From NCBI GenBank assembly GCA_038227875.1, contig JBBRPR010000020.1, positions 32,001-96,000 of the forward strand: DNA of 64,000 nucleotides. Direction: 5' to 3'. Every line of letters begins with the position of its first letter. Within the stretch, counting starts at the first letter, position 1. Below are positions 21,400 to 50,827 of the stretch, piece by piece. The DNA is from Planctomycetota bacterium. GTDB lineage: Bacteria > Planctomycetota > SZUA-567 > H5-PLA8. The notes under the pieces are model-generated. The model made no database searches, had not been told where the DNA came from, and saw only the letters and a list, made by a program, of their open reading frames with translations. Position numbers and translations under genes: made by a program.

Positions 21400-21431
21400 T
21401 CTCCCTTAGTGACCCGAGTCATTAAGGGAGA
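21400..21431 (+). other. 14-bp stem-loop between the ECF sigma and fecR (possible mRNA stability or attenuation element)
   Basis: TCTCCCTTAGTGAC-CCGA-GTCATTAAGGGAGA (one G-U pair); no U-tract; the 3' arm includes a purine-rich AAGGGAG. Confidence 0.5.
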
Positions 21432-26879: not shown

Positions 26880-26898
26880 TGCCGCTTAAAAGACTTCG

Positions 26899-27909: not shown

Positions 27910-27921
27910 TTTGGAAGAAAT

Positions 27922-28995
27922 CTATTTCACGCCCGTCGAGAGCGCTTTGGCGCAGGCGTTGACGATGGCGTTCGACGTGACCGTGGCCGACGAATAGGTG
28001 TCGACTCCCTTGACCGTCTGCTTGTCGATGATTTTCTGGGGAATGACCGTCAGCGATGCGTAGCACTGATGTTCGGTCTGCTGGGTCACGACCACGCTGT
28101 CGATCTTGTGGCCCTTCGTTACGACGTCCACCGAGACATTGCCGGAGTAGCCCATGCTGGTTCCGGAATACTTGCCGTCGGCGATGCGCTTGAGGTCGAG
28201 CAGCTCGAAAAGTTTGATCGCGTCGATGGACGCGTGGGCCTGATCCTGATTCCATTTCAGGCGTCCGGCGGCGGTCTGCGTGTCTTTCTGGACGACTTTC
28301 AGCACCTTTTCGTAGAAGTCGATTGCTTCCTTGTAACGGCCCGCGAGTTTCAGGCAGTCGCCGGCGACAAAGTATCCGGCGTCCGGACAACTCATCGCCT
28401 TGCCTTCCGCCATTTTCAGCGCGGTGTCGATGTCGCCAATGTCGGCCCACAATTTAATCACGCCGCCCTGGCGGGTGTTGTCGTAGCCGACCTTGTCGAG
28501 AACTTCTTTGGCCATGTCCTTGTTGCCCAGCCGGAAGTAGCAGTCGGCGAGCAGTTCGTCGTTGGACTCCGCCTTGCGAAACCAGAACGCGGCGCGCGCG
28601 TAGTCGGCGAAAAAGTTGTGATAACATTCGCCCAGCGCGAACATGGTTCGTTTCAGTTTCTCGGGATCACTCTTATTGACATTCAAAACCTGGTGGAGCA
28701 GTTTCACGCCTTCTTTCCAGCGCGGCGGATTGGGATTGATCACCGTCCAGATAAATTCCTTCAGATCCTTCTGAGCGTTGCGGCCTTTCGGATCGCCCCA
28801 GGTTAAATCGAGCGTCTGCGGATAATTCGGCGTGACGGATGCGAACCAATCGGGCGGAGCCTGGCCGGCCTTCTGGATGATCGCGTCGATCTCCGCGCGG
28901 GTGTGCGAATTGGCGGCGGGTTGCGCCGGCTTGGCGGTTTCCGCGGCGGGCAGCGATGCAAGCATCAGCAGCAGCGCTACCGGCAGAATCTTCAT
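27922..28995 (-). CDS. Secreted TPR + FMN-binding domain protein (paralog 2)
   Basis: Signal peptide MKILPVALLLMLASLPAA; TPR-like helices; C-terminal DGKYSG..GYSGNVSVDV...GVDTYSSATVTS FMN_bind fold. Confidence 0.85.
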   Translation of the reverse strand: MKILPVALLLMLASLPAAETAKPAQPAANSHTRAEIDAIIQKAGQAPPDWFASVTPNYPQTLDLTWGDPKGRNAQKDLKEFIWTVINPNPPRWKEGVKLLHQVLNVNKSDPEKLKRTMFALGECYHNFFADYARAAFWFRKAESNDELLADCYFRLGNKDMAKEVLDKVGYDNTRQGGVIKLWADIGDIDTALKMAEGKAMSCPDAGYFVAGDCLKLAGRYKEAIDFYEKVLKVVQKDTQTAAGRLKWNQDQAHASIDAIKLFELLDLKRIADGKYSGTSMGYSGNVSVDVVTKGHKIDSVVVTQQTEHQCYASLTVIPQKIIDKQTVKGVDTYSSATVTSNAIVNACAKALSTGVK

Positions 28996-29110
28996 GAGTC
29001 GAGCGCGAGAATTCACTGATATTACCCTCTCCGCAGGTCCGAATTTGGTTCGCACCAGAGAGTGGTTTGCGCACGTGAAAAGGGTGCGGCGATTTTCTCG
29101 AAATTGACGA

Positions 29111-30193
29111 CTATTTCATACCCGTGGCCAACGCCTTGGCGCAGGCGTTAATGATCGCTTCCGACGTGATGGTCGCCGAGGTGTACGTGTCGACGCCCTT
29201 GACGCCTTGTTTGAGGATGATCTGTTTCGGCGTCTCCGTCAGCGAGCCGTAGAACTGTTTTTCGGTGTGCTGCGTCACTTTCACGTCGTCGATTTTGGCG
29301 CCTTTAACGGAAAGTTCCACGGTGACCGGACCGGTGTAGCCGGTGCTGCTGCTGGTATATTTTCCGTCGGGAACGCGCTTGAGGTCGAGTGTGTCGAAGA
29401 CCTTGATCGCGTCGATGCTGGCCTGCGCGCGCGCTTTACTCTGCTTGAAATCGCGGCCTGCTTTGGACGGATCGCTGGTCAGGACTTTTTGGAAATACTT
29501 CAGCGCATCGGCGTAGCGGCCAGTCGTGCGGCAGGCTTCGCCGGCCATCAGCCAGGCAATGTCCGGCTTGTCGAAATCGGCTTTCACTTCCGCTTCCTTG
29601 ATTGCCTTGTCGAATTCGCCCAGATCCGCCCACAGCTTGATCAGCGAGCCGTGGCGCGTGTCGTCGTTGCCACAGCGGCCGAGGATTTCCTTGGCGTACG
29701 CGGGGCAACCGAGCTTCCAGTAACAGAACGCCAATTCTTCCGTGTCCGTATCGCCTTTCTTCTGCCACCAGTACGCGGCGCGGGCGTAATCGAAGAGGCA
29801 ATTGGCGTAGAGATGTGCCATCTGGCCCTGCATGTTGGCGACTTTCGCCGCGTCTTTCTCGTTCACGGCAATGACATGGGCGGCAAACTTCACGCCCTCT
29901 TTCCATTTGCCCGCGTTTTCGTTGATCACGCTCCAGAAATACTGACCGACATTCTTCTGCGGATCCCACGGCGCGCCCTTGGGTGGCGGGGTCAGGGTCA
30001 GATCCAACGTCTTTGGAAAATTCAGGGGCGTCGCCTCCCACCAATCCGGCGGCGTGGTGCCTTGCTTCTGGATAAGCGCGTCGACTTCGGGTTTGGTGCG
30101 TACCGGCGGAGCAGTCTCGCCTGCGTAAATCAGCCCGGTAGCGCCGAGCACCACAGCAATGAGCACGCACGTTGACGGTCCGAAATTTTGCAC
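29111..30193 (-). CDS. Secreted TPR + FMN-binding domain protein (paralog 1); start uncertain
   Basis: Clearly homologous to 27922-28995 (PPDW, KEGVK, DYARAA, LIKLWAD); C-terminal DGKY..GYTGPVTVEL...GVDTYTSATITS. Confidence 0.85.
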   Translation of the reverse strand: MQNFGPSTCVLIAVVLGATGLIYAGETAPPVRTKPEVDALIQKQGTTPPDWWEATPLNFPKTLDLTLTPPPKGAPWDPQKNVGQYFWSVINENAGKWKEGVKFAAHVIAVNEKDAAKVANMQGQMAHLYANCLFDYARAAYWWQKKGDTDTEELAFCYWKLGCPAYAKEILGRCGNDDTRHGSLIKLWADLGEFDKAIKEAEVKADFDKPDIAWLMAGEACRTTGRYADALKYFQKVLTSDPSKAGRDFKQSKARAQASIDAIKVFDTLDLKRVPDGKYTSSSTGYTGPVTVELSVKGAKIDDVKVTQHTEKQFYGSLTETPKQIILKQGVKGVDTYTSATITSEAIINACAKALATGMK

Positions 30194-30221
30194 GTTGAAT
30201 CGTACTCCGTTGAGAATCGAT

Positions 30222-30249
30222 GACCTTGCCGCCAATGGGCGGCAAGGTC
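30222..30249. repeat. 28-bp GACCT-N18-AGGTC palindrome, copy 1
   Basis: GACCT TGCCGCC AATG GGCGGCA AGGTC. Confidence 0.8.
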
Positions 30250-30259
30250 AACTGCTGTG

Positions 30260-30628
30260 CTACTTTTTCTCTTTATGATCGCCACCGCCACCTTCGCCCT
30301 TCTTGGTGATCGTATTGGCGTGAATTGTGGGAACGTCGCCATCTTTCTTGATGCTGCCGGTCACTTGGAACGTGCCCTGGCCGACGAGGTCCTTCTCCGC
30401 TGCCGCGAGCTTCGCCTTGGTTTCGTCGCTCGCTTTTTCGCCGGCGACGATGGCGTGGCTTTCGCCGTTGGCGGACTTGAACGAGATCTTACCGTCACCG
30501 GACTTTTCGAATGTGCCAACCCACGTATGGGCCCCGCCGCTCTGCTTGTGCTCCTCTTCGGCTTTGGCCACCGTGGCCACGCAACAGGCGAACAGACAAA
30601 CGGCCGCAATATATAACCCGCGCTTCAT
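30260..30628 (-). CDS. Small secreted hypothetical protein (possible OB-like beta domain)
   Basis: Strong AAGGAG RBS; signal peptide MKRGLYIAAVCLFACCVATVAKA; co-oriented within the operon. Confidence 0.75.
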   Translation of the reverse strand: MKRGLYIAAVCLFACCVATVAKAEEEHKQSGGAHTWVGTFEKSGDGKISFKSANGESHAIVAGEKASDETKAKLAAAEKDLVGQGTFQVTGSIKKDGDVPTIHANTITKKGEGGGGDHKEKK

Positions 30629-30726
30629 GTAACGCTCCTTTTCCTCCTCCACATGGCAACACGCCACCCTCACATGAGGGAAGTGCCCCATGCCGATGTG
30701 CTGAACTCAATTCGATCGTGCCACTA

Positions 30727-30754
30727 GACCTTTGTGCCTTTGGGCACAAAGGTC
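30727..30754. repeat. 28-bp GACCT-N18-AGGTC palindrome, copy 2
   Basis: GACCT TTGTGCC TTTG GGCACAA AGGTC. Confidence 0.8.
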
Positions 30755-30763
30755 AGGCTCACA

Positions 30764-31801
30764 TCAACCCGCCATTGGGAAATTCTTGGTCGTGTACGTT
30801 TTGCCGTCCTTGAACACCAGCAGTCCTTCCGCCGGCGTGTCCGAGATCAATTTCAGGCCGCGTTCCAAGCCCGCCACGCAGACGGCCGAAGAAAGTCCAT
30901 CGGCGTCAATCGCACGGTTGGTGACCACGGTGACGCTGGAGAAGACCAGCGGCGAGCGCCCGGTTGCCGGATCGAAAATGTGGTTGTAGACAAAGTCGTC
31001 GGAGAAGGTCGTGGCGTAGTCACCGGACGTAGCCAGGCACAGGCCGTCGAGCCTGGCCATGCCGATGTACGCATCGGGCTTGCGCGGATGCTGGATGCCC
31101 ACGGTCCACGGTGCGGGCGTCGCGTCGGGCTTGTTTCCCATCGCGCGGATTTCGCCGGTGTTGACCAGGGCGTGCTGAATGCCGAACTTCTTCAGCGCGT
31201 CGGCGCAGCGGTCGGCCGCGTAGCCCTGTGCGATGCCGTTGAACGTAATCGCCTGGCCTGCGCCGACTTGAATCTTGGAGTCGGAGTATTCGATTTTCGT
31301 CCAGTCGATCTTCTTGCGCGCGGCTTCGATTTCGGCGTCGCCGGGGAGCGCATTCTTCTTCTTCGCGGCCATGTACAGTTCCCACAGCGGCTGGACGGTC
31401 ACGTCAAATGCCCCTTCGCTGCGCTTGGAGAGCTTGAGCGCGGCCTTCAGACAATCGACGAAGTACGGATGCGGGTTGTTGAAAACGCCGTCGCGGTTGA
31501 GCTTCGAAATCTGGCTCTCAGGCCGGTAGATGCTCATCACGGATTCAACGGTTTCGAGTTCCCCGAACGCGGCGTCGAGCGCCTTGCGGGCGATGTCTTC
31601 GTCTTCGTGCATGACCAGCATCGAAATCTCAGTGCCCAGCGCGTACGACGTGCGCTTGGCGGTCTTCATGCCTTCCACCCCCAGCGCGGCGGCGGCCGGA
31701 CCGTCGCCGGCGAACGCTTTTTTCATCCACGGCATCAGGAGCGCAGCGCTGCCTGCACCAAAGGCCAGTTGAAAGAATTTGCGGCGGTTGAGGTTCGACA
31801 T
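30764..31801 (-). CDS. apbE: FAD:protein FMN transferase with a Tat-type signal
   Basis: NRRKFF twin-arginine motif; ALGT, SQISKLN, GAFDVTVQPL, NGIAQGY, VGIQHP, ATSGDY, HIFDPATG and ADGLSSA. Confidence 0.93.
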   Translation of the reverse strand: MSNLNRRKFFQLAFGAGSAALLMPWMKKAFAGDGPAAAALGVEGMKTAKRTSYALGTEISMLVMHEDEDIARKALDAAFGELETVESVMSIYRPESQISKLNRDGVFNNPHPYFVDCLKAALKLSKRSEGAFDVTVQPLWELYMAAKKKNALPGDAEIEAARKKIDWTKIEYSDSKIQVGAGQAITFNGIAQGYAADRCADALKKFGIQHALVNTGEIRAMGNKPDATPAPWTVGIQHPRKPDAYIGMARLDGLCLATSGDYATTFSDDFVYNHIFDPATGRSPLVFSSVTVVTNRAIDADGLSSAVCVAGLERGLKLISDTPAEGLLVFKDGKTYTTKNFPMAG

Positions 31802-31816
31802 GTTCAAGTGCGCTCC

Positions 31817-33022
31817 TTAGTCCTGCTTTTCAATCCGGACGATGCGGCGGTGTTCTTCCAAGACCCATTCGACTTTAACTTTGTCACCCTTATTCAACTT
31901 TTCAAGGGTGCGAATCATGTCTTTGTCCAGATTTCCTTCCTTCGGGTTATCTTTGGTGGGAACCCAGCGCGGGGTGTACTTCTCGTTTTCGCCACCGTGG
32001 TCGCGAATCCGAATCCACTCGCCGCCATCGCCCTTCTCGGTCACTTCTCCCACGATGGAACCGGTCTTGTGATGGTGTTCGGTGGAGTCCGGGGGGCTCC
32101 AGACGATCTGCATTTTTGTGACGCGCGGGTACTCCTGCATGACCCAGGCGATCTGCACGCGCGTGCCCTTGCTCAACTTGTGAATCGCTTCGAGCATCTC
32201 TTTGTCGACGCCGTCGTGCGTTCGCGGGGTGAAGCGGCGCGCATCCTTGCCTTCGTCGCGAAGTTCGAAAAAGTTGTCGCCCTTGTTGGTCACAAGGCCG
32301 AAGGCGATGCCGCCCTTTTCGCCGGCACGAAGCGTCGTACCCCATCCGGGCAGCTCCACAGCGCCTTCCTGAACGCTGACATCCATCGTCCGGCGCCGAG
32401 CCTGCTCGGTCTTGAGTTCATTGCCTTCGCCGCTGATGGCGACGGTGAACTTCGTTCCCGTTACGGCGACTGTTCCGGAATCGGTGCGAACGGCAAAGGT
32501 ACCAATGTGACGGTCGACCTGGCAGGTTACGCTGCCGGACTCGAGCAGCACCTGCTCGGCCTTGTCCTTGCCTTCATTCACGAGCGAACTGTTGGCGGCG
32601 ACGTCGAGATTGCAGTAACCGCCCAGCGCGACCTTCTTTGGCGTGGCGTCGGTCTTGATCCGCTCGCCGCGCGCCCAGGCATTGGGGCTGGGCTTAAAGT
32701 CGTTCTCCGGCTTCGGCGGCGTGTAGGGTGGGTCACCCCACTGCAAACCGGGCTCATTGGTCTTGGGCGTTTCCTTGGCCACCTCGACCGGCGGCGCGGG
32801 CATGGCAAATTTCCAGACCGCCACGCCAATCAGAATCGCGGCCGCGACACTCGCGCCGCCCGCCAGCCAGTAGAAGCGGCGGCGTTCGCGTTCGACCCGT
32901 TTCATGATCCGGCTGGCGAGATTCGGCGGCGCTTCCTTGCCGAGCGCTTCGCGCAGGAGCGTGTCGATCAGGCGGTCTTTGGGATCCGCCAAATCCGAAG
33001 GATCGTTGTCGTCGGCGCTCAT
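31817..33022 (-). CDS. FecR-domain anti-sigma factor with two C-terminal ~75-aa repeats
   Basis: TM helix; LESGSVTCQV...FAVRTDSGTVAVTGTKFTV...VSVQEGAVEL; duplicated G.VT.KGD...TPR...DK.M......L.KG..V...W module; start overlaps the ECF stop (ATGA). Confidence 0.85.
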   Translation of the reverse strand: MSADDNDPSDLADPKDRLIDTLLREALGKEAPPNLASRIMKRVERERRRFYWLAGGASVAAAILIGVAVWKFAMPAPPVEVAKETPKTNEPGLQWGDPPYTPPKPENDFKPSPNAWARGERIKTDATPKKVALGGYCNLDVAANSSLVNEGKDKAEQVLLESGSVTCQVDRHIGTFAVRTDSGTVAVTGTKFTVAISGEGNELKTEQARRRTMDVSVQEGAVELPGWGTTLRAGEKGGIAFGLVTNKGDNFFELRDEGKDARRFTPRTHDGVDKEMLEAIHKLSKGTRVQIAWVMQEYPRVTKMQIVWSPPDSTEHHHKTGSIVGEVTEKGDGGEWIRIRDHGGENEKYTPRWVPTKDNPKEGNLDKDMIRTLEKLNKGDKVKVEWVLEEHRRIVRIEKQD

Positions 33023-33558
33023 GCTCGACTCGCTTTGCCTGTGGCCAGCCGCCGGCGGATACAGTCCGCCAGTTCGCGGCGCAGACGGCGCATCAACGAT
33101 TTCACGCCGTCTTCGGACATCTTGTAGAGCTGCGCCAGTTCGGCGCGCGATTTTTCCTGCTTGTAGAAGTGATCGAGAATGCCGCGCTGCTTGTCTTCCA
33201 GTTTCCCGACGCAGCCGCGCAGTGCTTCGATCGCTTCAAAGCCGTCGCCGCCCTGGAGAAAATCGGCCGTCCAGACGACTTCGGCCTGCTCCAACGCTTC
33301 ACTGTTGACCTTGACCGGGCTGTGCTTCGCGCGGCGGCAGTAGTTGAAGAAGAGATTGCGGGCAATCCCGCGCAGCCAGGCCGCGCGCACGCGCTCGTCG
33401 TTGGTGACCGGCGTCGAGGTGCTCTTGAACGCCATCAGGAACGTGTCTTGAACGAGATCTTCCGCGACGGAGACGCTGTCGGCGCCAAGGTAGCGCAGGT
33501 AGCGGTAGATCTCCGCCTGATGCGCCAGAATCCAGCTTTCCAGTTCGTCGCGATCCAT
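33019..33558 (-). CDS. ECF sigma-70 factor (type common in Planctomycetes/Verrucomicrobia)
   Basis: AEDLVQDTFL, AWLRGIARN, ALRGCVGKL, VKSLMRRLRRELADCI; ATG at 33558 after GGGAG. Confidence 0.92.
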   Translation of the reverse strand: MDRDELESWILAHQAEIYRYLRYLGADSVSVAEDLVQDTFLMAFKSTSTPVTNDERVRAAWLRGIARNLFFNYCRRAKHSPVKVNSEALEQAEVVWTADFLQGGDGFEAIEALRGCVGKLEDKQRGILDHFYKQEKSRAELAQLYKMSEDGVKSLMRRLRRELADCIRRRLATGKASRA

Positions 33559-33658
33559 CACAGCTCCCGAGTATCCAAGAGGAAGTGGTGTAATTTGTAG
33601 TAAAGGGTGAGGAAAAACCTGCGAATTTCTTGGGATCGGAGGAGGATCGTGTCGTTTT

Positions 33659-33686
33659 GACCTCCCGGTAAATTTACCGGGAGGTT
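33659..33686. repeat. 28-bp GACCT-N18-AGGTT palindrome, copy 3
   Basis: GACCT CCCGGTAAA TTTACCGGG AGGTT; the inner 26 bp form a perfect palindrome. Confidence 0.8.
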
Positions 33687-33769
33687 CCACAGGTACAACA
33701 GTCCTGAGTAATTGCGAAGAATCGCCCCACGAGTTACATCGGCTTTTGAGAGCAATTGAGGATTTAGTG

Positions 33770-34219
33770 ATGGCAAGCATTCAGGACGTCCAGCTTCTAC
33801 TAAATTCGAATAAAGAGATTTCCGATTTTGGAAAGCCTGCATCGAGCCAGTCAATCAGACGCGCCGAAGAATTCTTGAGTCTAGGTTTTCCAGTAGACTA
33901 CCGCGATTACCTCATGCGCTGGAGTTGGTTGTCCATAGGACCCAATGAGTACTTTGGGATTATCAGTGAAAACTTTGAGAGCGCGAGCCATCAGAATGCA
34001 ATCGGCTTTACGCAGATGTGTCGACGGGAGAGGAGTTACCCGAATCATTTAATTGTTGTGCGTAACAATGAAGGCGATGAACTCCATTCGTTGGACACCA
34101 CTGATCCGGATGCCTCTCGAATAGTGGTATGGGATACGAATTTGCGCAAGATTACGGCTGTGCGGGCAGATTCTCTGTTTGAATACATTCTTAAAGAAGC
34201 GACGGACTTTTTAGACTAA
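33770..34219 (+). CDS. SMI1/KNR4 (SUKH) family immunity-like protein, low GC
   Basis: PASSQSIRRAEEFLSLGFPVDYRDYL...NNEGDELHSLD...SLFEYI pattern; AT-richer codon usage than the flanks. Confidence 0.82.
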   Translation: MASIQDVQLLLNSNKEISDFGKPASSQSIRRAEEFLSLGFPVDYRDYLMRWSWLSIGPNEYFGIISENFESASHQNAIGFTQMCRRERSYPNHLIVVRNNEGDELHSLDTTDPDASRIVVWDTNLRKITAVRADSLFEYILKEATDFLD

Positions 34220-35454
34220 CGCTTCTCCGCGCTTCCCGTCCCCGCCAGCACATCAAACCCATGCACCGCCACTTCGATCGCGTGCATCGTGTCGTCGTTT
34301 TCGTTCTCGATGACACTGGCGCTGTAATTTCTAGGCGCGGGTTTTGGCGTGGCGGCGTGGGCCAGTTGCAGCTCGGTGGCGCGGTTGAGCCACAATCGCG
34401 ATTCCAGTGGATCCAGGCGCAGGCCGCGGCCTTCTGCGTAGCGTGCGCCTAACCGGGCCGCAGCGTCGGCGTTGTGTTGTTCCGCTGCCTTCAGATACCA
34501 GTTCGACGCGACTTCGTCTTCATCGGGCAGGCCGCGGCGGAAGGCGTAATAGTCGGCAAGCTTCACTTGCGACGGCGCGTGGCCCTGCTCGGCCGCGAGC
34601 TCAAACCATTCGGCCGCGAAGCCGGTGTCGACGAGGACGCCAAGTCCCTGTGCATACATCATACCGACGCGAAACTGCGATGGCGCGGAGCCGCGCGATC
34701 CGGCGCGTTTGCTCCACTGCAGCGCGAGCGCGTCGTTGCGCGCGACGATGAAGCCATCGGCATACAGTTCGCCGAGGTGATCCTGGGCCTGAATCAGATT
34801 TTGGGTAGCGCATTCCGTGAGCAGCGCCAGACCCTTGTCCACGTTCGTGGCTGTTCCGATGCCGTGAAGCAGTCCGTAAGCGACGTGGAATTTCGCGGGC
34901 AGAAATCCCTGCTCCGCGGCGCGCGCGTACCAGCTGAAGGCGCCGACGGAGTCCTCGAGCGATTCGCAACACACGCCCACGAAAAATTGAGACGCGGCGT
35001 TTCCGCGGTTGGCGTCGTCGAGGAAGTCCCACCGCGCGGCCTGGACGAGCGACTTTCCGTACGCGGCATTTTTGTCGGTGGAGTTCGCTTCCAGTCCCAG
35101 CAACGTCCGTCCGCGGTAGAGCACGCCCAACGGCGTTCCTGCGCGCCACGCTTTGTCGAGCCACTCGGCGGCGACGTTGGTATCGGCCGGGCAGCCCAAT
35201 CCGCTGAGATGTGCGTAGAAAACGACGTCCAGCGCGACAGGGTCTTCGTGTTCCGCGCGCTGCTCAAATGACTTCAGCGCGACCGGCGAGAGGGTGGGGG
35301 AGAGCTGATTGTATTCTTTGGCATCCCGATCGGGTGCGATGACCACCGCACGATGATCCAGCGCATCGGCGGGAAGTTCGACGACTTCGGAGCGTACACC
35401 TGCACATATTATAACGAGCACAAACAGGGCAAAACCGGACACCACCTTGCGCAT
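34216..35454 (-). CDS. Secreted Sel1-repeat protein
   Basis: Signal peptide; repeated WY.RAAEQG...AQ..LG.MY..G.G units. Confidence 0.88.
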   Translation of the reverse strand: MRKVVSGFALFVLVIICAGVRSEVVELPADALDHRAVVIAPDRDAKEYNQLSPTLSPVALKSFEQRAEHEDPVALDVVFYAHLSGLGCPADTNVAAEWLDKAWRAGTPLGVLYRGRTLLGLEANSTDKNAAYGKSLVQAARWDFLDDANRGNAASQFFVGVCCESLEDSVGAFSWYARAAEQGFLPAKFHVAYGLLHGIGTATNVDKGLALLTECATQNLIQAQDHLGELYADGFIVARNDALALQWSKRAGSRGSAPSQFRVGMMYAQGLGVLVDTGFAAEWFELAAEQGHAPSQVKLADYYAFRRGLPDEDEVASNWYLKAAEQHNADAAARLGARYAEGRGLRLDPLESRLWLNRATELQLAHAATPKPAPRNYSASVIENENDDTMHAIEVAVHGFDVLAGTGSAEKR

Positions 35455-35610
35455 ACATATCCCTCGCAGAAGTTGCGAAGTGAAGGCGCAAATGACGTGA
35501 CAGCCCGCAGGAATTTTCGTACATGGTGTCTGAGTGCTGCTTGCGGCAACCCAGGTAAAAAGCACCGGCTGAATTTCAGACAGATTCCCGAACGAAATTG
35601 CGCGAGCGGC

Positions 35611-36786
35611 TCATTCAACTTCCAGATTGGGACTGGCGTCTTTGAGCGTTTTGAGCCCAGCGGCGCTGACGGACGTGCCTTTTAGTGACAACTTTTTCAG
35701 ATGGGTCAGACCTTTCAGCGCGGCGACGGATGCGTCGGTAACGGCGGTGCGGGACAGGTCGAGGATTTCCAGCGACTGCAGGTCCTTGAGCTCCGCCAGA
35801 CCCGCGTCAGTAACGGCCGTGCCGCCCAACATCAGTTGCTTCATCGCTTTCAGGCCGCTCAGCGATTTGAGTCCAGCATCGGTGATTTTCGTGGCCGTCA
35901 GCCAGAGGCCGGGGAATTCGGGCAGTTCTTTGGGTGCGGCCACGCCAGGGACGACGGCCGGCTGTTCTTTCAGCGCCGCCGCGGAAAGCTGCTTCATCGC
36001 GGCCAGCTTCTGCAATCCGGCATCGCCGACCGCCGTGCCGTCGAGCATCAGAGTCTGAAGGCCGGGCAGTGCGGCGAGGGTTTCCATGCCGGCGTCGGTG
36101 ACGAGCGTGCCGCGCAGGTCCAGCGTCTGGAGTTCGGTCATCCCTTTTAAGTGCTGGAGACCGGCGTCGGTGATCTTTGTCTTGTAGATGATCAGGCGCG
36201 TCATGTGGGTCATGCCGGCGAGGTACGCCAAGCCTGCGTCGGTGATCTGCGTGTTGCCGATGGAGATTCCCGGAAGTTGCGTCAGACCTTTCAGATGTTC
36301 CAAGCCCGCGTCGCCGATCTTCGTTTCGCGGAGACCGAGCCATTCGAGATGGGTCATCCCTTTCAGATTGGCCAGGCCCGCGTCGGTAACTTTCGCGCCT
36401 TTCAAGCCCAGCAGCCGGAGTTGGACGAGTCCCTGCAGGTGCTTGAGGCCCTCGTCGCCGACGGCCGTTTCCGAAAGATGGAGCGCCTGAAGTTTGCTCA
36501 GCCCCGCCAGCGCGTTGAGTCCAGCATCGGTGACCTTGCTGTGCGCCAGGCTGAGTTCCTCTAGCTGGCGGAGCACGCGGATGTTCTCGAGATCCGCGTC
36601 GCCGGCTTGGGTTTCGCCCAGGTAGATACCGGTGATCGATTTGCCGTCCGCGCCGAGCGTGACTTTTCCGCCGAGCCTGACAACCGCGGCGCTGGCGCGC
36701 GTCTCTGGCGATTGGTCTTCGGCAGCGGCGACACCGATGGAACTGAGTACCAGAAAAACGGCGGTCGCGCGGGCAACGTTGAACAT
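35611..36786 (-). CDS. Secreted leucine-rich repeat protein
   Basis: Signal peptide; more than ten 24-aa LxxLxLxxTxVTDAGLxxLKGL repeats. Confidence 0.9.
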   Translation of the reverse strand: MFNVARATAVFLVLSSIGVAAAEDQSPETRASAAVVRLGGKVTLGADGKSITGIYLGETQAGDADLENIRVLRQLEELSLAHSKVTDAGLNALAGLSKLQALHLSETAVGDEGLKHLQGLVQLRLLGLKGAKVTDAGLANLKGMTHLEWLGLRETKIGDAGLEHLKGLTQLPGISIGNTQITDAGLAYLAGMTHMTRLIIYKTKITDAGLQHLKGMTELQTLDLRGTLVTDAGMETLAALPGLQTLMLDGTAVGDAGLQKLAAMKQLSAAALKEQPAVVPGVAAPKELPEFPGLWLTATKITDAGLKSLSGLKAMKQLMLGGTAVTDAGLAELKDLQSLEILDLSRTAVTDASVAALKGLTHLKKLSLKGTSVSAAGLKTLKDASPNLEVE

Positions 36787-36954
36787 CGTCAGATTCCTCA
36801 TTTTCCAATCGTCATTGACCGGAGTGCCATGATCGTGGGTGTATACAGCACAATGGACTGAATCTTCAACAGAAACACGGCGCGAGTCGAGCACTTAATC
36901 GTGACCTTTCAGTACGGCAACAGTTATCAGAATACTCAAAGGAGGCGTTGCCAT

Positions 36955-37185
36955 ATGCCGGGACTCTTGATGCTGCTGGCCTGGGCGCTGCTCTTGATTG
37001 GCGGAATCATGGTGCTGATCGCAGCCTTCCGGGTCGGAATACTGTGGGGGCTGGCGGTGTTCTTTCTGCCGGGAATCGTGCATTTGATCTTTGTCATCGT
37101 TCATTGGAAAGAGGCGAAGAACGGGATCCTCGTCCAGCTCTGTGCGATTCCGCTAATCATTCTTGCCAAATTGATGCGCCATTGA
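36955..37185 (+). CDS. Small integral membrane protein (about 76 aa)
   Basis: AAAGGAGG RBS; three hydrophobic segments with AFRVGILWGL...HWKEAK. Confidence 0.75.
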   Translation: MPGLLMLLAWALLLIGGIMVLIAAFRVGILWGLAVFFLPGIVHLIFVIVHWKEAKNGILVQLCAIPLIILAKLMRH

Positions 37186-37295
37186 CGATCGCTCATTTCG
37201 ATCCGCCTTCGTCAGGAATTTTTTCCACCTTTCGTGTATCATAGTTGGGATCACATCCAATTTTTGACTGATACACGGACTCGAAGGGGGAAGTC

Positions 37296-38108
37296 ATGCG
37301 CGTCATCATCCAACCCAACGCTCAGAAGGCCGGCGAGTGGGCCGCAGCGTACATTGCGCGCGGAGTCAAGCGCGCGGCGCCGAGCGCCAAAAAGCCATAC
37401 GTGCTGGGCTTGCCCACGGGCAGTTCGCCGATTCCCACCTACGCCCGCATGGTGGCGTTGAACAAGGCCGGCGCGCTGCCGTTCGCCAACGTGATCACCT
37501 TCAACATGGATGAGTACGTTGCGCTCCCGGAATCGCATCCAGAGAGTTACCATTCCTTCATGCGGCGCCATCTGTTCGACCACGTCGACGCGAAGCCGGA
37601 GAACATCAATATTCTCAACGGCAACGCGCCGGATCTGGAGGCCGAATGCCACACCTATGAGGAGAAGATCAAGCGCTGCGGCGGAATCGATCTGTTTCTC
37701 GGCGGCATCGGTCCGGACGGTCACATCGCCTTCAACGAGCCCGCATCGTCGCTGGCCTCACGCACGCGCATCAAAACACTGACGCAGGACACGCGCATCG
37801 CCAACTCGCGGTTCTTCAACAACGATCCGGAGCAGGTGCCGAAGCTGGCGCTGACCGTCGGCGTCGCGACCGTAATGGACGCGCGCATAGTTCTGCTGAT
37901 TGTGACCGGGCATGGCAAATCGCGTGCGCTGGCCGAAGTGGTCGAGCACGGCGTGAATCACATGTGGACGGTTTCCGCGCTGCAACTGCACCCCAAGGGC
38001 ATCATTGTCTGCGACGACGCGGCGACGGTGGAACTGAAGGTGGGCACGGTGAATTACTTCAAGGATATTGAGCGCGAGAATTTGGATCCGGAGCGGCTGC
38101 TGGGATGA
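37296..38108 (+). CDS. nagB: Glucosamine-6-phosphate deaminase
   Basis: [46 protein letters not shown] and SALQLH. Confidence 0.97.
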
Positions 38109-38110
38109 GT

Positions 38111-38836
38111 CTACATCTTAGCGATCCACTCCTGCACCACATCACGGTTGGTGACCCAGAAGAAGAATGTCGACGCCAGAATCGCGTGTGAGATCGCAAT
38201 CGGTATGACGTAGCGGTCGCGGTGGTACGAGTAGCTCCAGAAAATGCCGCCGAGGATCGTCACCGCTGTCAGCTCCGGCGCGGGCAGATGGCACAATCCG
38301 TAGAGCACGCCATTGATGATGCTGATCGTCAGCGGCGATGCGAACGGCAGCAGCGCGCGCAAGCGGCCCAGTAGATAGAACTGGAAAAGCGTCTGTTGCA
38401 GGAGCGCCCAGGGAAGATAGGCGCACAAGGCCGTCAGGAAATGCAGGCTGAACATCGGGACGTGCGGCTCTTTGAAGACGTCGAAGTGGCGGCAGAGAAT
38501 ACCGATGATCAGAAATCCGACCGCGGGCGGCACGGTGAAGAAGGACGTGTTGATCGCGCAGCGGCGGATGCGGTCGAACGGCGGCGAGGTCACCGGACCC
38601 CAGATGCGTTCTTCCGTTTCTTTCGCGGTGAAGCCGACCAGGCCCAAACCGACCAGCGCCATTCCCAGGTAAATGCCCTGCTTGGTCTGCGGATCCTTGG
38701 GAACGAAAATCAGGAACAGGGCGGTGAGCACCGATAAAATGCTCAGCTCCGTCGCGACGCGCAGCCGCAAACCATTGGGCGGGTGCGGCATTCCATTGGG
38801 ATAGACGGCTCCGGCCACGGCTTTTTGCTCCAGCAA
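38111..38836 (-). CDS. CPBP/Abi (CAAX protease-like) membrane protein with a variant motif 1
   Basis: Multi-TM; LQQTLFQ (EExxxR position), YGLCH and ISHAIL motifs. Confidence 0.7.
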   Translation of the reverse strand: MLEQKAVAGAVYPNGMPHPPNGLRLRVATELSILSVLTALFLIFVPKDPQTKQGIYLGMALVGLGLVGFTAKETEERIWGPVTSPPFDRIRRCAINTSFFTVPPAVGFLIIGILCRHFDVFKEPHVPMFSLHFLTALCAYLPWALLQQTLFQFYLLGRLRALLPFASPLTISIINGVLYGLCHLPAPELTAVTILGGIFWSYSYHRDRYVIPIAISHAILASTFFFWVTNRDVVQEWIAKM

Positions 38837-39174
38837 CTAGCCCCAATAACTACTGCCTTGGGGAAAGGGTATCGGTGGCACGAAAAATAGTGTACTCAGG
38901 ATCGATCCTGTTTCAACGGTCCTGAAGCACCTTATCTGATACATGCAAACATCCGTTGCGTCACCGGCGCGCGCACACGCAGAAACCGACGTTTGATTGC
39001 CGGACGAAAAGTCCTGGCGTTGCCTTCTGTTGTGGGTTATTCGTTCTTTTTGTTCTGTTGAGTTCTCAATTTTTAAACACTATGCTGGAAAAACACACAA
39101 CTACAGATTAGTTTCAGAGCTGTCTCTAAATGCGCGGTTCATCAGGGATGCCTGGCAGTCGAGGAATTGTTCCC

Positions 39175-41100
39175 ATGCAATTAGAGCCACTGAAGCTGCT
39201 GCTGGTGGAAGCGTCCTCCGACGCGGCGTTGCTGATTGAACGCGAAGTCAAAGCCGCGGGGCACGAAACGCTCTGCGTAAACGTTAATTCCAGCGCGCGG
39301 TTGCAGGAGGAATTGAAGCGCGCGGCCTGGGACATAGTCATCGCTGACTATGCGCTACCGGGCTTCAGCGGGCTGGAAGCGATCTCGCTGGTCAAGCAGA
39401 TTCAATTCGATCTGCCAATCATCATTGTTTCCGGAACCGCCGGCGAGGAAGCCGCCGTCGCGGCGATGAAAGCGGGCGCCAGCGATTTCGTGCTGAAGGG
39501 CCGGCTCTCGCGGCTGGTTCCGTCGATCGAGCGGGAGATCCGCGAATACCGCCAGCGCCTCGCGCACCGCCAGACCCGCATCAAGCTGCTGGACATGCAG
39601 GAGAATTTCCGGGCGTTCATGAACAACAGCCCGGTCATCGCGTTCCTTAAAGATCGCGACGGGCGAATCGTGTACGCCAACGAAACGTTCGAGCGCGTCT
39701 TCAAAATGGATGCGGCGGCGTATATGGGTAAAACCGTCGACGAACTGTATTCACCCGAGTTCGCCGAGCAATACCGCCGCAACGATACCTATGTGCTCGA
39801 ACACAACCGCCCGCTGGAAGTAATCGAGACGGTGATGCATTCCGACGGCGTGCATCACTGGCTGATCACGAAGTTTCCGCTGATCAAGTCCGAAGGTCCG
39901 CCACTGCTGGGCGCCATCGGGATTGACATCACCGAGCGCCGCCGACTGGAAGAGCAGCTCCGGCAATCGCAGAAGATGGAAGCCATCGGGCATCTGGCCG
40001 GCGGCGTGGCGCACGATTTTAACAACCTGCTGACGATCATCATGGGCCGCGCCGATCTGCTCCTGCGCGGCATGGAGCAGGCCGATCCCACGCGCGGTGA
40101 ACTGGCGCTTATTTATTCCACTGCCGAGCGCGCCGGCGTGCTCACGCGGCAGCTCCTGCAATTCAGCCGCCAGCAGATGCTGACGCCCCGGGTCATCAAC
40201 CTGAACGAGGTGATCGTCGACGTGAAGGAGATGCTCTGCCGGCTGATCGGGGAAGACATCGAGCTGGTGACGCGCCTGGAACCGCAGCTCGTGCCGGTCT
40301 CCGCAGATGCCAGCCAGATTCAGCAGATCATCTTAAATCTGGCCGTGAATGCCCGCGACGCCATGAAGGATGGCGGACGGCTGCTGATCGAAACCGGGAA
40401 CATCGAACTGGACGAAGAGTACGCCATGCGCCACGTCTCGGTGGTGCCGGGAAAGTATGCGGTCTTGAGCGTCTCAGACACCGGCTGCGGCATGGACGAG
40501 AAAGTCCGCGCGCGGCTCTTCGAGCCGTTCTTCACCACCAAGGAAATGGGGAAGGGGACCGGGTTGGGGTTGTCGACGGTCTATGGCATCGTCAAACAAA
40601 GCGGCGGAAACATCTGGGTCTACAGCGAACCCGGCCGCGGCTCGGCGTTCAAAGTCTATCTGCCCGCCTCCAAGGACACCAAGGTCGTCAGTGCCGCCTC
40701 CAGCGCCGAGCTGCCATCCGTGCAGACGGGGTCGCAGGTCGTCCTGGTAGCGGAGGACGAAAGTGCCGTCTGCGAGTTGATCGCGGAAGTGCTGACGGTC
40801 GCCGGCTACACCGTGCTCACCGCCGGCAACGGCGAAGACGCGCTAACGGTCAGCGCGGAGTATAATGGGGAGATTCATCTGCTGGTGACCGACCTGGTAA
40901 TGCCGCGCTTGAGCGGCAGCGCGCTGGCCGCGCAGCTCAAGCCATTGCGCCCGTCGATCAAGGTGCTCTTCATGTCCGGCTATGCCAGCAATATGACCGA
41001 CCGCATCGGCATTCCAGACGGCATGTTCTATCTGGATAAACCCTTCACACCCGACAAGCTGATCCGACGCGTGAAAGAGGCGCTCGCCAGTACTCCCTGA
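39175..41100 (+). CDS. Cytoplasmic hybrid histidine kinase (REC-PAS-HisKA-HATPase-REC, CckA-like)
   Basis: QSQKMEAIGHLAGGVAHDFNNLL, NLAVNARDAM, DTGCGM, FEPFFTTK, GTGLGL; receiver domains at both ends; no TM helix. Confidence 0.95.
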   Translation: MQLEPLKLLLVEASSDAALLIEREVKAAGHETLCVNVNSSARLQEELKRAAWDIVIADYALPGFSGLEAISLVKQIQFDLPIIIVSGTAGEEAAVAAMKAGASDFVLKGRLSRLVPSIEREIREYRQRLAHRQTRIKLLDMQENFRAFMNNSPVIAFLKDRDGRIVYANETFERVFKMDAAAYMGKTVDELYSPEFAEQYRRNDTYVLEHNRPLEVIETVMHSDGVHHWLITKFPLIKSEGPPLLGAIGIDITERRRLEEQLRQSQKMEAIGHLAGGVAHDFNNLLTIIMGRADLLLRGMEQADPTRGELALIYSTAERAGVLTRQLLQFSRQQMLTPRVINLNEVIVDVKEMLCRLIGEDIELVTRLEPQLVPVSADASQIQQIILNLAVNARDAMKDGGRLLIETGNIELDEEYAMRHVSVVPGKYAVLSVSDTGCGMDEKVRARLFEPFFTTKEMGKGTGLGLSTVYGIVKQSGGNIWVYSEPGRGSAFKVYLPASKDTKVVSAASSAELPSVQTGSQVVLVAEDESAVCELIAEVLTVAGYTVLTAGNGEDALTVSAEYNGEIHLLVTDLVMPRLSGSALAAQLKPLRPSIKVLFMSGYASNMTDRIGIPDGMFYLDKPFTPDKLIRRVKEALASTP

Positions 41101-41108
41101 CAACAAAG

Positions 41109-41141
41109 AAAAACGCGGGGCAGTTTGCCCCGCGCCTTTTT
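41109..41141. terminator. Bidirectional intrinsic terminator
   Basis: AAAAA-CGCGGGGCA-GTT-TGCCCCGCG-CCTTTTT between convergent genes. Confidence 0.8.
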
Positions 41142-41163
41142 GGCTGCGTGAGTTTTCCTTCAT

Positions 41164-43221
41164 TTAGCCCTGGGTCTTGCTCGCCGCTGTCTTTTCTTTG
41201 CGGGCCTGAGCTTCGGCCTTTGTGGCTTCCGCTTTCGCCGCGCGTTCCTGCTGCTTGGCTTCGGTCTGCTGGCGCGCCGCGGCCTGGCGGGCTTCCTGCG
41301 CGGCCTTCGTCGCTGCCGCCTTTTCCGCGGCCTGCTTCTGCTGTTCAGCGCGGACGTTCTGGGCCTGGACCTTCGCCGCTTCGTTCTGCGCGGCCCGTTC
41401 CTTCGCCTGTTGCTGAGCCTGCGCCTGGCGCTGTTCCTGCGCAACCTTCGTTGCCGCGGCCTTTTCCGCCGCCTGCTTCTGTTGTTCAGCCCGGAGGTTC
41501 TGGGCCTGGACCTTCGCTGCTTCGTTCTGTGCAGCCCGTTCCTTCGCCTGTTGCTGAGCCTGCGCCTGGCGCTGATCCTGAGCGGCCTTCGTTGCCGCGG
41601 CTTTTTCCGCGGCCTGCTTCTGCTGCTCCGCGCGGAGGTTCTGGGCCTGGACCTTCGCCGCTTCGTTCTGCGCGGCCCGCTCCTTCGCCTGTTGCTGAGC
41701 CTGCGCCTGGCGCTGATCCTGAGCGGCCTTCGTCGCGGCGGCTTTGTCGGCCGCTTGCTTCTGCTGTTCCGCGCGGAGGTTCTGCGCCTGGACCTTTGCC
41801 GCTTCATTCTTGGCGGCGCGTTCCTGTGCCTGCTGCTGAGCGAGCGCCTGGCGTTGATCCTGCGCGGCCTTCGTTGCAGCAGCCTTCTCGGCGGCCTTCT
41901 GTTGCTGTTCGGCGCGGAGATTCTGAGCCTGGAGCTTCGCGGCTTCGGTCTTCGCGGCGCGGTCGGACTGAGCTTGCACGCGCTGCGCTTCGCGCTGAGC
42001 CACTGCGTCCTGCAACTTCTGGCGCGCTTCCTGGCGCTTCTGTTCTTCCGCGGCGCGGCGTTCCTGGATCACCAGCGGATTGACGGGCGCCTTGGCATCG
42101 ATCTGCGGGCGGAAGGTCACCAGCTGATCGCCCTGGCGGTGGTCGTGGGGAATCTGCTGGCCGATGTCCACTCGGGCGTCGGCGATCTGCACGGGGCGGA
42201 TCGTCTGGTGCGTGTAGCTTTCAATCCGGTTCACCGGGATGCCGGCGTTGACGACATGGTGGTCGCGGTACTGGTAGGTGTTGCCCAGGTTGATGCTGAT
42301 GTTGAAGACATTCTTCACTCGGGACTGGGGCAGCAGGCACGTTCCGACGTCCGTGGCGAGGAAGCGGTCGGACGGGACGAAGTTGTAGTCCGCATCGCGC
42401 AGGCCGAAGTCGCAATTGGTTCCCGCCAGATTGCCGTGGAATTCCAGGCCGACCTTTTCGTCGAAGCGCGCCTCGGGGGGCAGCGGCGCCCAACCGTAGG
42501 CATCGTTGGTCTGGCGGAAGTTCACCCAGGCCGGCGCCCACTTCGTATCCGGCACCCACACCCAGCGCTGTGCCGAACCGCGCGCCCAGCGGCCGTAGTG
42601 GAACGCCGCCCAGCTCCAGTTGTATGACGATTCCCAGTACCAGCCCTGATTGGTGTAGGTCCAGTGGCCGTGCTGAGCATACGGGCGCCAGTCGCTATGC
42701 GTGTCGGCCACCGTCGGCGTCCACACCCAGCCGTAAGACGGATCGTTGTGCCAGTTGCCATCCGGCGCGAGCGCCTGGTAGAAGAAGCTGACATTCATGT
42801 CGCTGTTCTGCGGCACAGTCACCGGCGGTTCGACCACCGGCGTAGTCTGCAGCAGCGTGCTGGCCGGAGTGTACGCGACCGGCAGTGTCTGCGCGGCGGG
42901 CGTCGACGTAGTCGTCGGATCGCTGATCAAGCTCGACAGGCTCGGCTGCGTGGTATCAGTGTTGTCGACAATCTTGCCGTGGTTGATCATCTCCAGGATC
43001 ACGGCATCGGAGACGTTCTCGCGTTCCAGGCGGATGATGTCGTCGGAGGTCAGTTCGTACTGCCGGCCGGCGTTGTCGATGTAGGCGGTGATCACCGGTT
43101 CGCTGACCCCGGCGCTGACCATGCGTTCGATTTCGGTCACTTCCTCACCGGCATGGACGGCGGTCATTCCCATCAAGAATCCCATCGTGAGCGTGGCGAT
43201 CAGTGCTTTTAAGCTTTTCAT
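41164..43221 (-). CDS. Secreted DUF6600-like protein with a C-terminal Ala/Gln/Lys-rich helical repeat tail
   Basis: Signal peptide; FYQALAPDGNW...YGWVWTP...WRPY..GHW...GWYWES...WAAFHYGRW...WAPAWV...GWAPLPP. Confidence 0.85.
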   Translation of the reverse strand: MKSLKALIATLTMGFLMGMTAVHAGEEVTEIERMVSAGVSEPVITAYIDNAGRQYELTSDDIIRLERENVSDAVILEMINHGKIVDNTDTTQPSLSSLISDPTTTSTPAAQTLPVAYTPASTLLQTTPVVEPPVTVPQNSDMNVSFFYQALAPDGNWHNDPSYGWVWTPTVADTHSDWRPYAQHGHWTYTNQGWYWESSYNWSWAAFHYGRWARGSAQRWVWVPDTKWAPAWVNFRQTNDAYGWAPLPPEARFDEKVGLEFHGNLAGTNCDFGLRDADYNFVPSDRFLATDVGTCLLPQSRVKNVFNISINLGNTYQYRDHHVVNAGIPVNRIESYTHQTIRPVQIADARVDIGQQIPHDHRQGDQLVTFRPQIDAKAPVNPLVIQERRAAEEQKRQEARQKLQDAVAQREAQRVQAQSDRAAKTEAAKLQAQNLRAEQQQKAAEKAAATKAAQDQRQALAQQQAQERAAKNEAAKVQAQNLRAEQQKQAADKAAATKAAQDQRQAQAQQQAKERAAQNEAAKVQAQNLRAEQQKQAAEKAAATKAAQDQRQAQAQQQAKERAAQNEAAKVQAQNLRAEQQKQAAEKAAATKVAQEQRQAQAQQQAKERAAQNEAAKVQAQNVRAEQQKQAAEKAAATKAAQEARQAAARQQTEAKQQERAAKAEATKAEAQARKEKTAASKTQG
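41265..41960 (-). repeat. About five tandem 141-bp (47-aa) intragenic repeats
   Basis: Unit AAQNEAAKVQAQNLRAEQQKQAAEKAAATKAAQDQRQAQAQQQAKER; the DNA motif recurs at 141-bp spacing (e.g. 41356 and 41497). Confidence 0.9.
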
Positions 43222-43440
43222 GGTTGAGTCCCTGAAGTTTGCTTTTGAAAGTCGTTCTTGTCTCTCCACTTCTCTAGTCGAATCAGACGATTCAAATATT
43301 CATTTGAGTTTTTGATATTCTGGATGACAGAATTGATAACATATTGATTATAAACAAGTTAAAATATTAAATATTATCGATAATTAGAGAGTGTCCGTGC
43401 GTTCGCAGGCGGGAACATGTGCAGAAGTGAACGAAGCAGT

Positions 43441-43519
43441 GGTCAAAAGTCAACATAGGGAAAATTTTCCCTATGCTGAAACGGTCATTTTGACCTGTGG
43501 GCCACGTGGCCCACAGGTC
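43441..43519. repeat. Nested palindromes, including copy 4 of the GACCT-N18-AGGTC element
   Basis: GGTCAAAA/TTTTGACC (43441-43495) brackets a perfect 22-bp CATAGGGAAAATTTTCCCTATG (43454-43475); a perfect 28-bp GACCTGTGGGCCACGTGGCCCACAGGTC follows (43492-43519). Confidence 0.85.
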
Positions 43520-43616
43520 CGTTCCAGAAGTCGAAAATCCTCCTATATATTGTCACTCTACCTCTAAACCGCGCTGCTTTCTGACCGATGAAGCCCGGGT
43601 GAGAGGTGCTGTGTCT

Positions 43617-50017: not shown

Positions 50018-50827
50018 ATGAAGAGCGGCGATTTGGAAACGTACTTTGCGGCAAAGCCATTGCGGTTCCTGACCGGATTCCGGCACGCCGCGCTGAATTA
50101 CTGCCAGATGCATTTCCATCAAGCCTTCGAAATCGTCTACCACCCAACCGGCCGCGGCGTGACGAAAATCAAGAGCGGGGAGAGTGTCGCGTACGACGAA
50201 AACGGCGTGGTGGTCTACGCGCCCTTCATGTCACACGACCAGACGCCGCAAACGGCCGGCGAAGATGTCTGCCTGCAATTCGACAGTGCGCTGCCGCTGC
50301 CGGCGGCTCTGCAGAAATGCATTTACGTTCCGCCGCTTCGCGACGGACACCTGATTGCCGAGATCAACGATCTCGCGCGCTTCAACGCGTCGGGGTTGAG
50401 CGCTCTGCAAAAAACGGCGCTCAATTGCCGCATCAACGCGCTGCTGATTCACTTCGTTCAAGCCAGTTCGGCTGCCTCCGCTGGCGCGCGGCGACCCAGC
50501 ACCGAACGCTACGCCGAGGCCGCGCGCAGCCACATCACCAGCCATTCGCAGGAAATCAGCCGCATCGAGGACGTCGCCGCTCACGTCGGCGTCAGCCACA
50601 CGTACCTGCGGCATCTTTTCAAGGAACACTACGGCGTCACGCTCGCAGCGTACCTGAACCAGGCGCGCGTGGAGCGGGCCAAGGACTTGCTGACCCGCTC
50701 GGCGTTGCCACTGAAGATCGTGGCGACGATGTGCGGCTTTGACAACGAGCGTTACTTCTCTCACGTCTTCAAAAAGCATTCCCGCTGCACGCCCGGCGAA
50801 TTCCGAGGACGACTACTTCATTTCTGA
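50018..50827 (+). CDS. AraC family transcriptional regulator
   Basis: Cupin MHFHQAFEIVY; C-terminal double HTH CGFDNERYFSHVFKK...TPGEFR. Confidence 0.92.
   Translation: MKSGDLETYFAAKPLRFLTGFRHAALNYCQMHFHQAFEIVYHPTGRGVTKIKSGESVAYDENGVVVYAPFMSHDQTPQTAGEDVCLQFDSALPLPAALQKCIYVPPLRDGHLIAEINDLARFNASGLSALQKTALNCRINALLIHFVQASSAASAGARRPSTERYAEAARSHITSHSQEISRIEDVAAHVGVSHTYLRHLFKEHYGVTLAAYLNQARVERAKDLLTRSALPLKIVATMCGFDNERYFSHVFKKHSRCTPGEFRGRLLHF

Follow-up and report, generated by a model that had tools for sequence, protein, structure and literature searches.

Four palindromes and their gene settings

We examined a 64-kb stretch of DNA from a Planctomycetota bacterium (contig JBBRPR010000020.1, positions 32,001 to 96,000; hereafter the window, which all searches below cover unless stated otherwise), in which a first-pass annotation had pointed to four non-coding 28-nt palindromes that begin with GACCT, end with AGGTC or AGGTT and differ in their cores. 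Re-reading of the sequence and a pattern search returned all four with the coordinates and sequences reported, and we find that they constitute one family of cis-acting hairpin elements. They are a variety of a known kind, the intergenic palindromic hairpin element, with four copies in one 13-kb stretch. Three copies are tied to a single minus-strand gene cluster (24684-33558) headed by an extracytoplasmic function (ECF) sigma factor gene (start 33558). The cluster runs in the order ECF sigma, FecR, ApbE, copy 2, a 122-aa secreted protein, copy 1, two TPR/FMN-binding paralogues, a Vgb-lyase-like propeller and a poly-ferredoxin, the last being a 731-aa multi-4Fe-4S protein. ApbE belongs to a flavin transferase family, and the cluster has the look of a module for flavin-based extracytoplasmic electron transfer controlled by envelope signals. 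The hairpins at issue are as follows.

30222..30249, minus strand: copy 1, a palindrome of 28 nt whose stem reaches 13 bp with inclusion of the T/A pair on its flanks (30221/30250)
30727..30754, minus strand: copy 2, starting 9 nt past the ApbE stop codon (30766-30764)
33659..33686, no strand assigned: copy 3, in a divergent 212-nt gap with the ECF sigma gene on one side and a SUKH-family gene on the other
43492..43519, no strand assigned: copy 4, in a divergent 394-nt gap between a DUF6600 gene and a kinase/FGE-sulfatase fusion gene
43451..43478, no strand assigned: neighbor hairpin of copy 4, 28 nt, 12 stem positions and a 4-nt center, with different ends (18.7 bits, E 0.018, with the covariance model described below)

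The 122-aa secreted-protein gene lies between copy 2 and copy 1, as the annotation had it: copy 2 ends 97 nt ahead of its ATG (30629), and copy 1 starts 10 nt past its stop (30262-30260) and ends 28 nt ahead of the GTG start (30193) of the first TPR/FMN-binding gene. Copy 3 stands 100 nt from the ECF sigma ATG (33558, minus strand) and 84 nt from the SUKH-family ATG (33771, plus strand). The latter gene had been described as a low-GC immunity gene, which its assignment to the SUKH/SMI1-KNR4 family and a GC content at third codon positions of 0.49, versus ~0.75 in its neighbors, bear out. The gap that holds copy 4 extends from the DUF6600 start (43222, minus strand) to the kinase/FGE-sulfatase ATG (43617, plus strand), 97 nt from the copy, and the sequence confirms the AT-rich spacer noted beside it. 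Three of the four copies thus end 97-100 nt before a start codon. By gap type, copies 1 and 2 are in tandem gaps within an operon and copies 3 and 4 in divergent gaps; none is in a convergent gap. Copy 3, palindromic through its center, is preceded by GTCGTTTT, and copy 4, fully palindromic, by GTCATTTT. The TTTT noted before both is part of a longer match, GTCRTTTT, directly 5' of each; this is shared by copies 3 and 4 only, no sequence being common to the flanks of all four. Reading of the flanks revealed no target-site duplications at the copies.

The pattern GACCT-N18-AGGTY occurs at four sites (30222, 30727, 33659 and 43492), against 0.11 expected from dinucleotide-preserving shuffles. 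The four sites count as seven strand-matches, three of them being fully symmetric, a total that no shuffle out of 100 reached. The special status claimed for the 18-nt spacing held within the window: among spacings of 0-60, N18 alone yielded more than one site, while the others yielded 0 or 1, with single matches that are not self-complementary. Allowing up to two mismatches in the ten end positions, together with spacings of 8-32, produced no extra self-complementary site. Perfect hairpins with stems of at least 11 bp number six in the window, and four of these have an ACCT...AGGT base. We built a covariance model from the four copies and ran it unfiltered over the whole 64 kb; it scored above 29 bits for these four alone, the next-best matches being two other hairpins at 18.7 and 16.6 bits. 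The family in the window consists of exactly four members, all perfect, without decayed copies. All four are intergenic, while ~7.8% of the window is intergenic (P ~4e-5), and all lie inside 13.3 kb of the 64 kb (P ~0.03). Folding the whole window in sliding segments told us little (475 matches), as this sequence, at 60% GC, folds everywhere. We conclude that the four-copy pattern is real, statistically solid and structurally constrained, and does not reflect chance matches.

Stem structure and conservation

Each copy folds, as RNA and as DNA, into a 12-13-bp stem with a 4-nt loop. The first-pass annotation had distinguished two loopless copies from two with a 4-nt loop; two copies are indeed palindromic through the center as DNA, but all four have a 4-nt loop when folded. 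RNA folds range from -22 to -26.7 kcal/mol (z -5.1 to -6.3; copy 1, -26.7 kcal/mol, z -6.3; copy 2, -22.5 kcal/mol, z -5.8; copy 4, -26.4 kcal/mol, z -6.3) and were equaled by none of 200 shuffles for any copy, and DNA folds range from -12.6 to -18.2 kcal/mol.

Standard pairs occupy all 48 stem cells (12 pairs in four copies), so the claim that the cores differ yet pair with themselves stands. At six of the 12 stem pairs both sides change (10 cells), giving a covariation score that none of 500 shuffles reached, and sliding the 3' partner by 1-3 columns lowers pairing to 30-50%. Selection acts on the structure, as the full pairing of the stem cells and the two-sided change at half of the stem pairs indicate. 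It is thus the hairpin shape that is selected, and its invariant base is presumably read by some factor; perfect pairing despite differing cores also agrees with the earlier view of these sites as structure-selected hairpins and not simple operators.

Sequence conservation is concentrated at the stem base. The five basal pairs (GACCU/AGGUC) are invariant except for the outermost pair of copy 3, a G-T that reads G.U on the plus strand and A.C on the minus strand and is the single departure from strict Watson-Crick pairing (47 of 48 pairs). The upper seven pairs vary in sequence but keep pairing, such that the four copies have four different cores, with no stem common to any two, and the cores are found nowhere else in the window. 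Two features of the annotation were accordingly kept in part. The core is free in that its sequences differ, but stem position 10 is always a G-C pair, and GCC/GGC closes the loop in three of the four copies. The 28-nt length is common to all copies, but it is less special than it appears because other long hairpins in the window likewise have 4-nt loops and stems of 11-14 bp.

One such hairpin, at 43451..43478, ends 13 nt before copy 4. It contains a 22-bp perfect palindrome and one non-Watson-Crick position (A.C on the plus strand, G.U on the minus strand). Its end motif places it outside the family, and it is a possible partner of copy 4. The AT-rich stretch within 43280-43480 carries two sigma-70-like promoter sites on the plus strand, followed by this hairpin, and the hairpin and copy 4 are probably tandem hairpins in a long leader of the kinase/FGE-sulfatase gene.

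Proposed transcript punctuation and its rivals

Once transcribed, each element would form a highly stable stem-loop, either between cistrons or in a leader. This stem-loop could act as a barrier to exonucleases, its invariant base could provide a docking or cleavage mark for a trans-acting factor, and the resulting punctuation would set how much of each mRNA segment survives. We tentatively favor this reading, a putative transcript stem-loop whose base is read by a factor and which marks or protects mRNA ends, as possible more than probable. It corresponds to the RNA-processing signal among the suggestions of the first-pass annotation. Within it we tentatively infer RNA, not DNA, as the active form, a trans-acting factor that reads the base, and mRNA-end protection or processing as the outcome.

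Several observations are consistent with transcript punctuation: the perfect covariation, RNA folds that beat all shuffles, and the intergenic position of all four sites. Copies 1 and 2 start 9-10 nt past the stops of co-directional genes in one operon, a position that, by analogy, is that of intercistronic stabilizer stem-loops. Copy 4 is downstream of an AT-rich stretch with the only two promoter-like sites of its gap (plus strand), and is therefore probably in a long 5' leader. The sole non-Watson-Crick pair, in copy 3, is G.U on one strand, and a hairpin of the same size at 21400-21431 reads as RNA, with a G.U on the coding strand.

The 21400-21431 hairpin lies outside the family and merits separate description. 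It spans 32 nt, with a 14-bp stem including one G.U on the plus (coding) strand and a 4-nt loop, and it takes up the gap that separates an ECF sigma stop (21396) from a FecR start (21444). Since its 3' arm carries a Shine-Dalgarno-like run 12 nt ahead of the ATG, it likely serves in translational coupling or masking of the anti-sigma gene.

Other observations weigh against transcript punctuation. Strict pairing at 47 of 48 positions together with two center-palindromic copies fits a both-strand DNA constraint at least as well, and a fully paired conserved block is an unusual target for an RNA-binding protein. Copies 3 and 4 are in divergent gaps, where their transcription needs 5' leaders of at least 110 nt, and the promoter scan detected no promoter-like site upstream of copy 3 on the plus strand. 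The copies number just four, all within 13 kb, and they have no common flanking sequence that points to a cleavage site.

The main rival, which we rank behind the transcript reading and regard as doubtful, is that the elements are DNA targets resembling repetitive extragenic palindromic (REP) sequences. Here a single-stranded or cruciform hairpin would present a "double foot" (GACCT and its complement) to a structure-specific nuclease or transposase encoded elsewhere in the genome, and the element would be selfish or domesticated, its cores having drifted while arm-to-arm correction kept pairing perfect. The near-complete Watson-Crick pairing, the two fully palindromic centers, the conserved motif at both ends and the stability of the DNA folds all agree with this, as does the location of two copies in divergent gaps, where transcription is not assured. 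There is also precedent in the available text of PMC6006769, which records double-foot REPs of 27-28 nt with 12-bp stems and a foot that pairs with its complement and, in its Table S1, single-genome REP families with one foot and compensating stem changes.

Two features that define REPs, the foot and a Y1/HUH gene flanked by copies, are nevertheless missing from the window. According to the portions of PMC3733652 and PMC8266576 available, the defining foot is an unpaired tetranucleotide, GTAG or CGTC, 0-2 nt from the stem, and REP families are dominated by few sequence types (PMC3733652). Neither GTAG/CTAC nor CGTC/GACG is next to the stem of any of the four copies on either strand, nor does a CnGA foot adjoin one; the nearest GTAG, ~12 nt before copy 1, contains the upstream stop codon. 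Set against the REP criteria of a common stem and high copy number, the 64 kb hold four copies with four different cores, no two sharing one, and the copies show neither decay nor target-site duplications. No Y1_Tnp, HUH, transposase or integrase domain was found in 97 open reading frame (ORF) translations covering the 64-kb window (15 + 35 + 47, a few ORFs having been scanned twice). We also considered class 3 TnpA-Y1 structures, which the available text of PMC6006769 places mainly in Planctomycetes and Acidobacteria and describes as one conserved imperfect hairpin with a CnGA foot; their consensus had no match in the window at up to three mismatches, and the copies here are perfect and variable instead. 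Given the lack of a foot, a common stem and a Y1/HUH gene in the 64 kb, the copies are not REPs as defined in the literature, and the window does not confirm the REP/RAYT-like target that the first-pass annotation had offered.

If the structure is read by a protein but belongs to no such system, the elements could represent a "double-footed," core-hypervariable class of palindrome, in which a predicted structure-specific protein reads the 5-bp base and the 12-bp/4-nt geometry and ignores the core, in a manner like that of attC or REP but without sequence relation to either. We consider this improbable. If true, the elements could mark gene-module boundaries, copies 1 and 2 bracketing a small gene and copy 3 preceding a low-GC immunity-type gene.

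Termination offers another way for the hairpins to act in transcripts. Two textbook bidirectional intrinsic terminators (11412-11441 and ~41105-41145), each with a GC stem flanked by A- and T-tracts, occupy the only two convergent gaps of ~60 nt in the window, which indicates that the source genome uses canonical intrinsic terminators. The family members are not of this type: the terminator scan called none of the four hairpins, and no T-run follows either arm, in line with the annotation's statement that no copy has a terminator U-tract. A caveat is a weak six-pair alternative stem (30239-30258, plus strand), which shares sequence with copy 1 at its right arm and has a T-run behind it; it is of a class that occurs seven times versus 5.9 expected. 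The copies could instead be terminators or insulators of a non-canonical, factor-dependent type, active in either direction, with GACCU and AGGUC in place of the A- and U-tracts. Their layout is that of the canonical pair (5 flanking nt, a 7-9-bp GC-rich stem, a 3-4-nt loop, the returning stem and 5 flanking nt), and copies 1 and 2 lie close behind stop codons. However, no U-run follows any copy on either strand, both canonical terminators are in convergent gaps while none of the four family members is, no coding transcript arrives at copies 3 and 4 between their diverging genes, and copy 1 is just 28 nt before the next start codon of an apparent single operon. We judge such terminators unlikely.

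Placement ahead of genes could also denote double-stranded DNA operators, for one or several dimeric regulators, whose outer half-sites, (T)TGACC, overlap a -35-like hexamer. MerR-type operators begin inside the TTGAC -35 hexamer and have their dyad in the 19-20-bp spacer between -35 and -10. TTGACC faces the next gene in three of the four copies, the same number stand 97-100 nt before a start codon, and FNR/CRP-type HcpR sites read TTGACC...GGTCAA in the available text of PMC545781. In FNR-type sites (TTGAC-N6-GTCAA), however, the half-sites are 6 bp apart, versus 20 bp here. Perfect symmetry at all 12-14 positions is unneeded and rare in operators. One protein cannot explain four cores, and four proteins would hardly explain identical ends and length. 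On direct reading, no -10-like hexamer lies at a 19-25-bp spacer if TTGACC is taken as the -35, the promoter scans list no promoter-like site at any copy, and no MerR or CRP-family gene is beside any copy. Operators thus have little probability. Specific promoter types were rejected as well: a MerR-type promoter for want of the -10 hexamer, an ECF-type promoter because the GGAAC-to-GTC spacing would be 22-26 nt, and a sigma-54 promoter after copy 2, where TGGCAC occurs with a second element that is off register by 2 nt.

Finally, the palindromes could be functionless by-products of palindrome-making mutation, such as template switching or fold-back synthesis at GACCT with a fixed 14-nt arm. 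Their perfection, the two that are symmetric through the center, the unrelated cores that recur nowhere in the window and the absence of decayed copies, as expected if they are young, are all in keeping with such an origin. We know of no enzyme with such a fixed 14-nt ruler. All four copies are intergenic and none is in the coding 92% of the window, although purifying selection against insertions could produce the same distribution; the plus strand has 67 occurrences of GACCT and 48 of AGGTC, yet there are four palindromes only; and the GC-rich loop-closing pairs of three copies suggest selection for stability. We hold this explanation, like the operators, to be quite improbable.

A number of narrower identities were tried and rejected. 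A selenocysteine insertion (SECIS) element or stop-codon read-through stimulator is excluded because no ORF runs on through the hairpins, and Shine-Dalgarno sequestration by the copies because start codons are 28-100 nt away. A tRNA-like minihelix for RNase P is fitted in one orientation by U at -1 and G at +1, but there is no CCA and the loop has just 4 nt. Tiny leader ORFs that end in a TGA overlapping the base of copies 3 and 4 have 3 and 6 codons and are too weak. Insertion into a GACCTAGGTC target fails because GACCTAGGTC is absent; CCTAGG itself never occurs in the window.

Further observations concern the surroundings of the family. CCTAGG is absent from 64 kb in which ~20 occurrences are expected by a base-composition estimate, probably through general bacterial CTAG avoidance or a restriction system. 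Beyond copy 3, in 33771-36894, the SUKH/SMI1-KNR4 immunity-family gene is succeeded on the opposite strand by genes for Sel1-repeat and leucine-rich-repeat proteins, a group that may be an immunity-gene islet gained by acquisition. Domain content, with ECF sigma/FecR pairs, kinase-FGE fusions, LRR and Sel1 proteins, suggests that the window is planctomycete-like, in agreement with a weak protein-atlas lead (score 0.88). Pfam additionally identifies an HU-family DNA-binding protein (5008-5478, minus strand), an AraC regulator (50018-50827, plus strand) and a minus-strand run (54817-57970) of a mandelate-racemase-like enzyme, DUF1611 and a xylose-isomerase-like TIM barrel. A LacI-family regulator gene (53516-54649, minus strand) carries at its 5' end, next to a divergent gap, an 18-bp near-perfect palindrome (54619-54636) that has a half-site-like copy at 5720-5737 and is likely an auto-operator.

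What the family implies depends on its extent. If it is genome-wide, it would be a compact and easily searched cis-element (5-bp base, 12-bp stem, tetraloop) in a phylum where transcript punctuation and repeat biology have received almost no study, and a clean natural case of selection on shape with free sequence. It would provide a handle for isolating the reader protein, in which the hairpin would serve as bait and a mutant of its stem base as control, and could help predict operon substructure or gene-module boundaries. If it is confined to the 13-kb stretch, it would be a curiosity of local scope, linked to the ECF sigma/ApbE flavin operon.

Comparison with known systems

The family belongs to none of the known families against which it was tested. 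Rfam 15 gave no match in the whole window at gathering thresholds, and E-value scans of 30100-33900 and 43200-43700 gave six matches with E of at least 0.11, to unrelated families only (eukaryotic small RNAs, a frameshift element and a proteobacterial sRNA); among these, a mir-287 match (30169-30233, plus strand, E 1.5) reaches into copy 1 at its left end. A full-text literature search found no description of a GACCT-N18-AGGTY hairpin motif. Among other planctomycetes, four plasmid stretches totaling 167 kb (Isosphaera, two from Singulisphaera, and Planctopirus) contained no pattern match and two weak covariance-model matches (20.6 and 20.5 bits); this sample comprises plasmids only, from three species of other orders, and is a low-power negative that gives weak evidence that the family is not phylum-wide. 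Among possible relatives, tblastn against plasmids with the kinase-FGE protein (1187 records) and an ECF sigma factor (405 records) found only matches below 60% identity and no close relative, and an ApbE search of genome contigs confirmed one locus among 74 candidate stretches, on a gammaproteobacterial metagenome-assembled genome contig at 29% identity, which is useless for synteny.

Integron attC sites are similar in general design, having conserved inverted ends and a variable, self-pairing middle, being read by structure and lying just after the cassette ORF, as copies 1 and 2 lie after ORFs. These sites are 57-141 nt long, with RYYYAAC/GTTRRRY ends, unpaired (extrahelical) bases that select the strand, and IntI nearby. 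The copies here are far shorter, at 28 nt, have GACCT/AGGTY ends and pair in all 48 stem cells without a bulge, and the genes they bracket form a functionally coherent ApbE/FMN-binding operon. Their ends, length and lack of unpaired bases do not fit attC, and no integrase is encoded in the window; the copies are not attC sites, and the window does not confirm the cassette-recombination site that had been suggested.

REPs act secondarily on mRNA stability. They share with the family the form of short intergenic hairpin palindromes of 20-40 nt, and their double-foot forms, in the available text of PMC6006769, have 27-28 nt, 12-bp stems and paired conserved ends. In the family, by contrast, the foot is GACCT and always paired, there is no common stem, the copies number four and no RAYT gene is present in 64 kb. 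Canonical bidirectional terminators, as represented by 11412-11441 and ~41105-41145, have the same layout and size, but the family carries GACCT/AGGTC in place of A- and U-tracts and is found in tandem and divergent gaps, whereas the terminators are in convergent ones.

A further parallel is that of intercistronic stabilizer stem-loops, known from selective RNA processing and stabilization, which are stable structures a few nucleotides past stops inside operons, where copies 1 and 2 are also found. To our knowledge, these have no common sequence motif or fixed length; the family differs in having fixed ends and length, and in that two of its four copies are not intercistronic. Such stabilizer elements are described for a Clostridium operon in the available text of PMC4423207.

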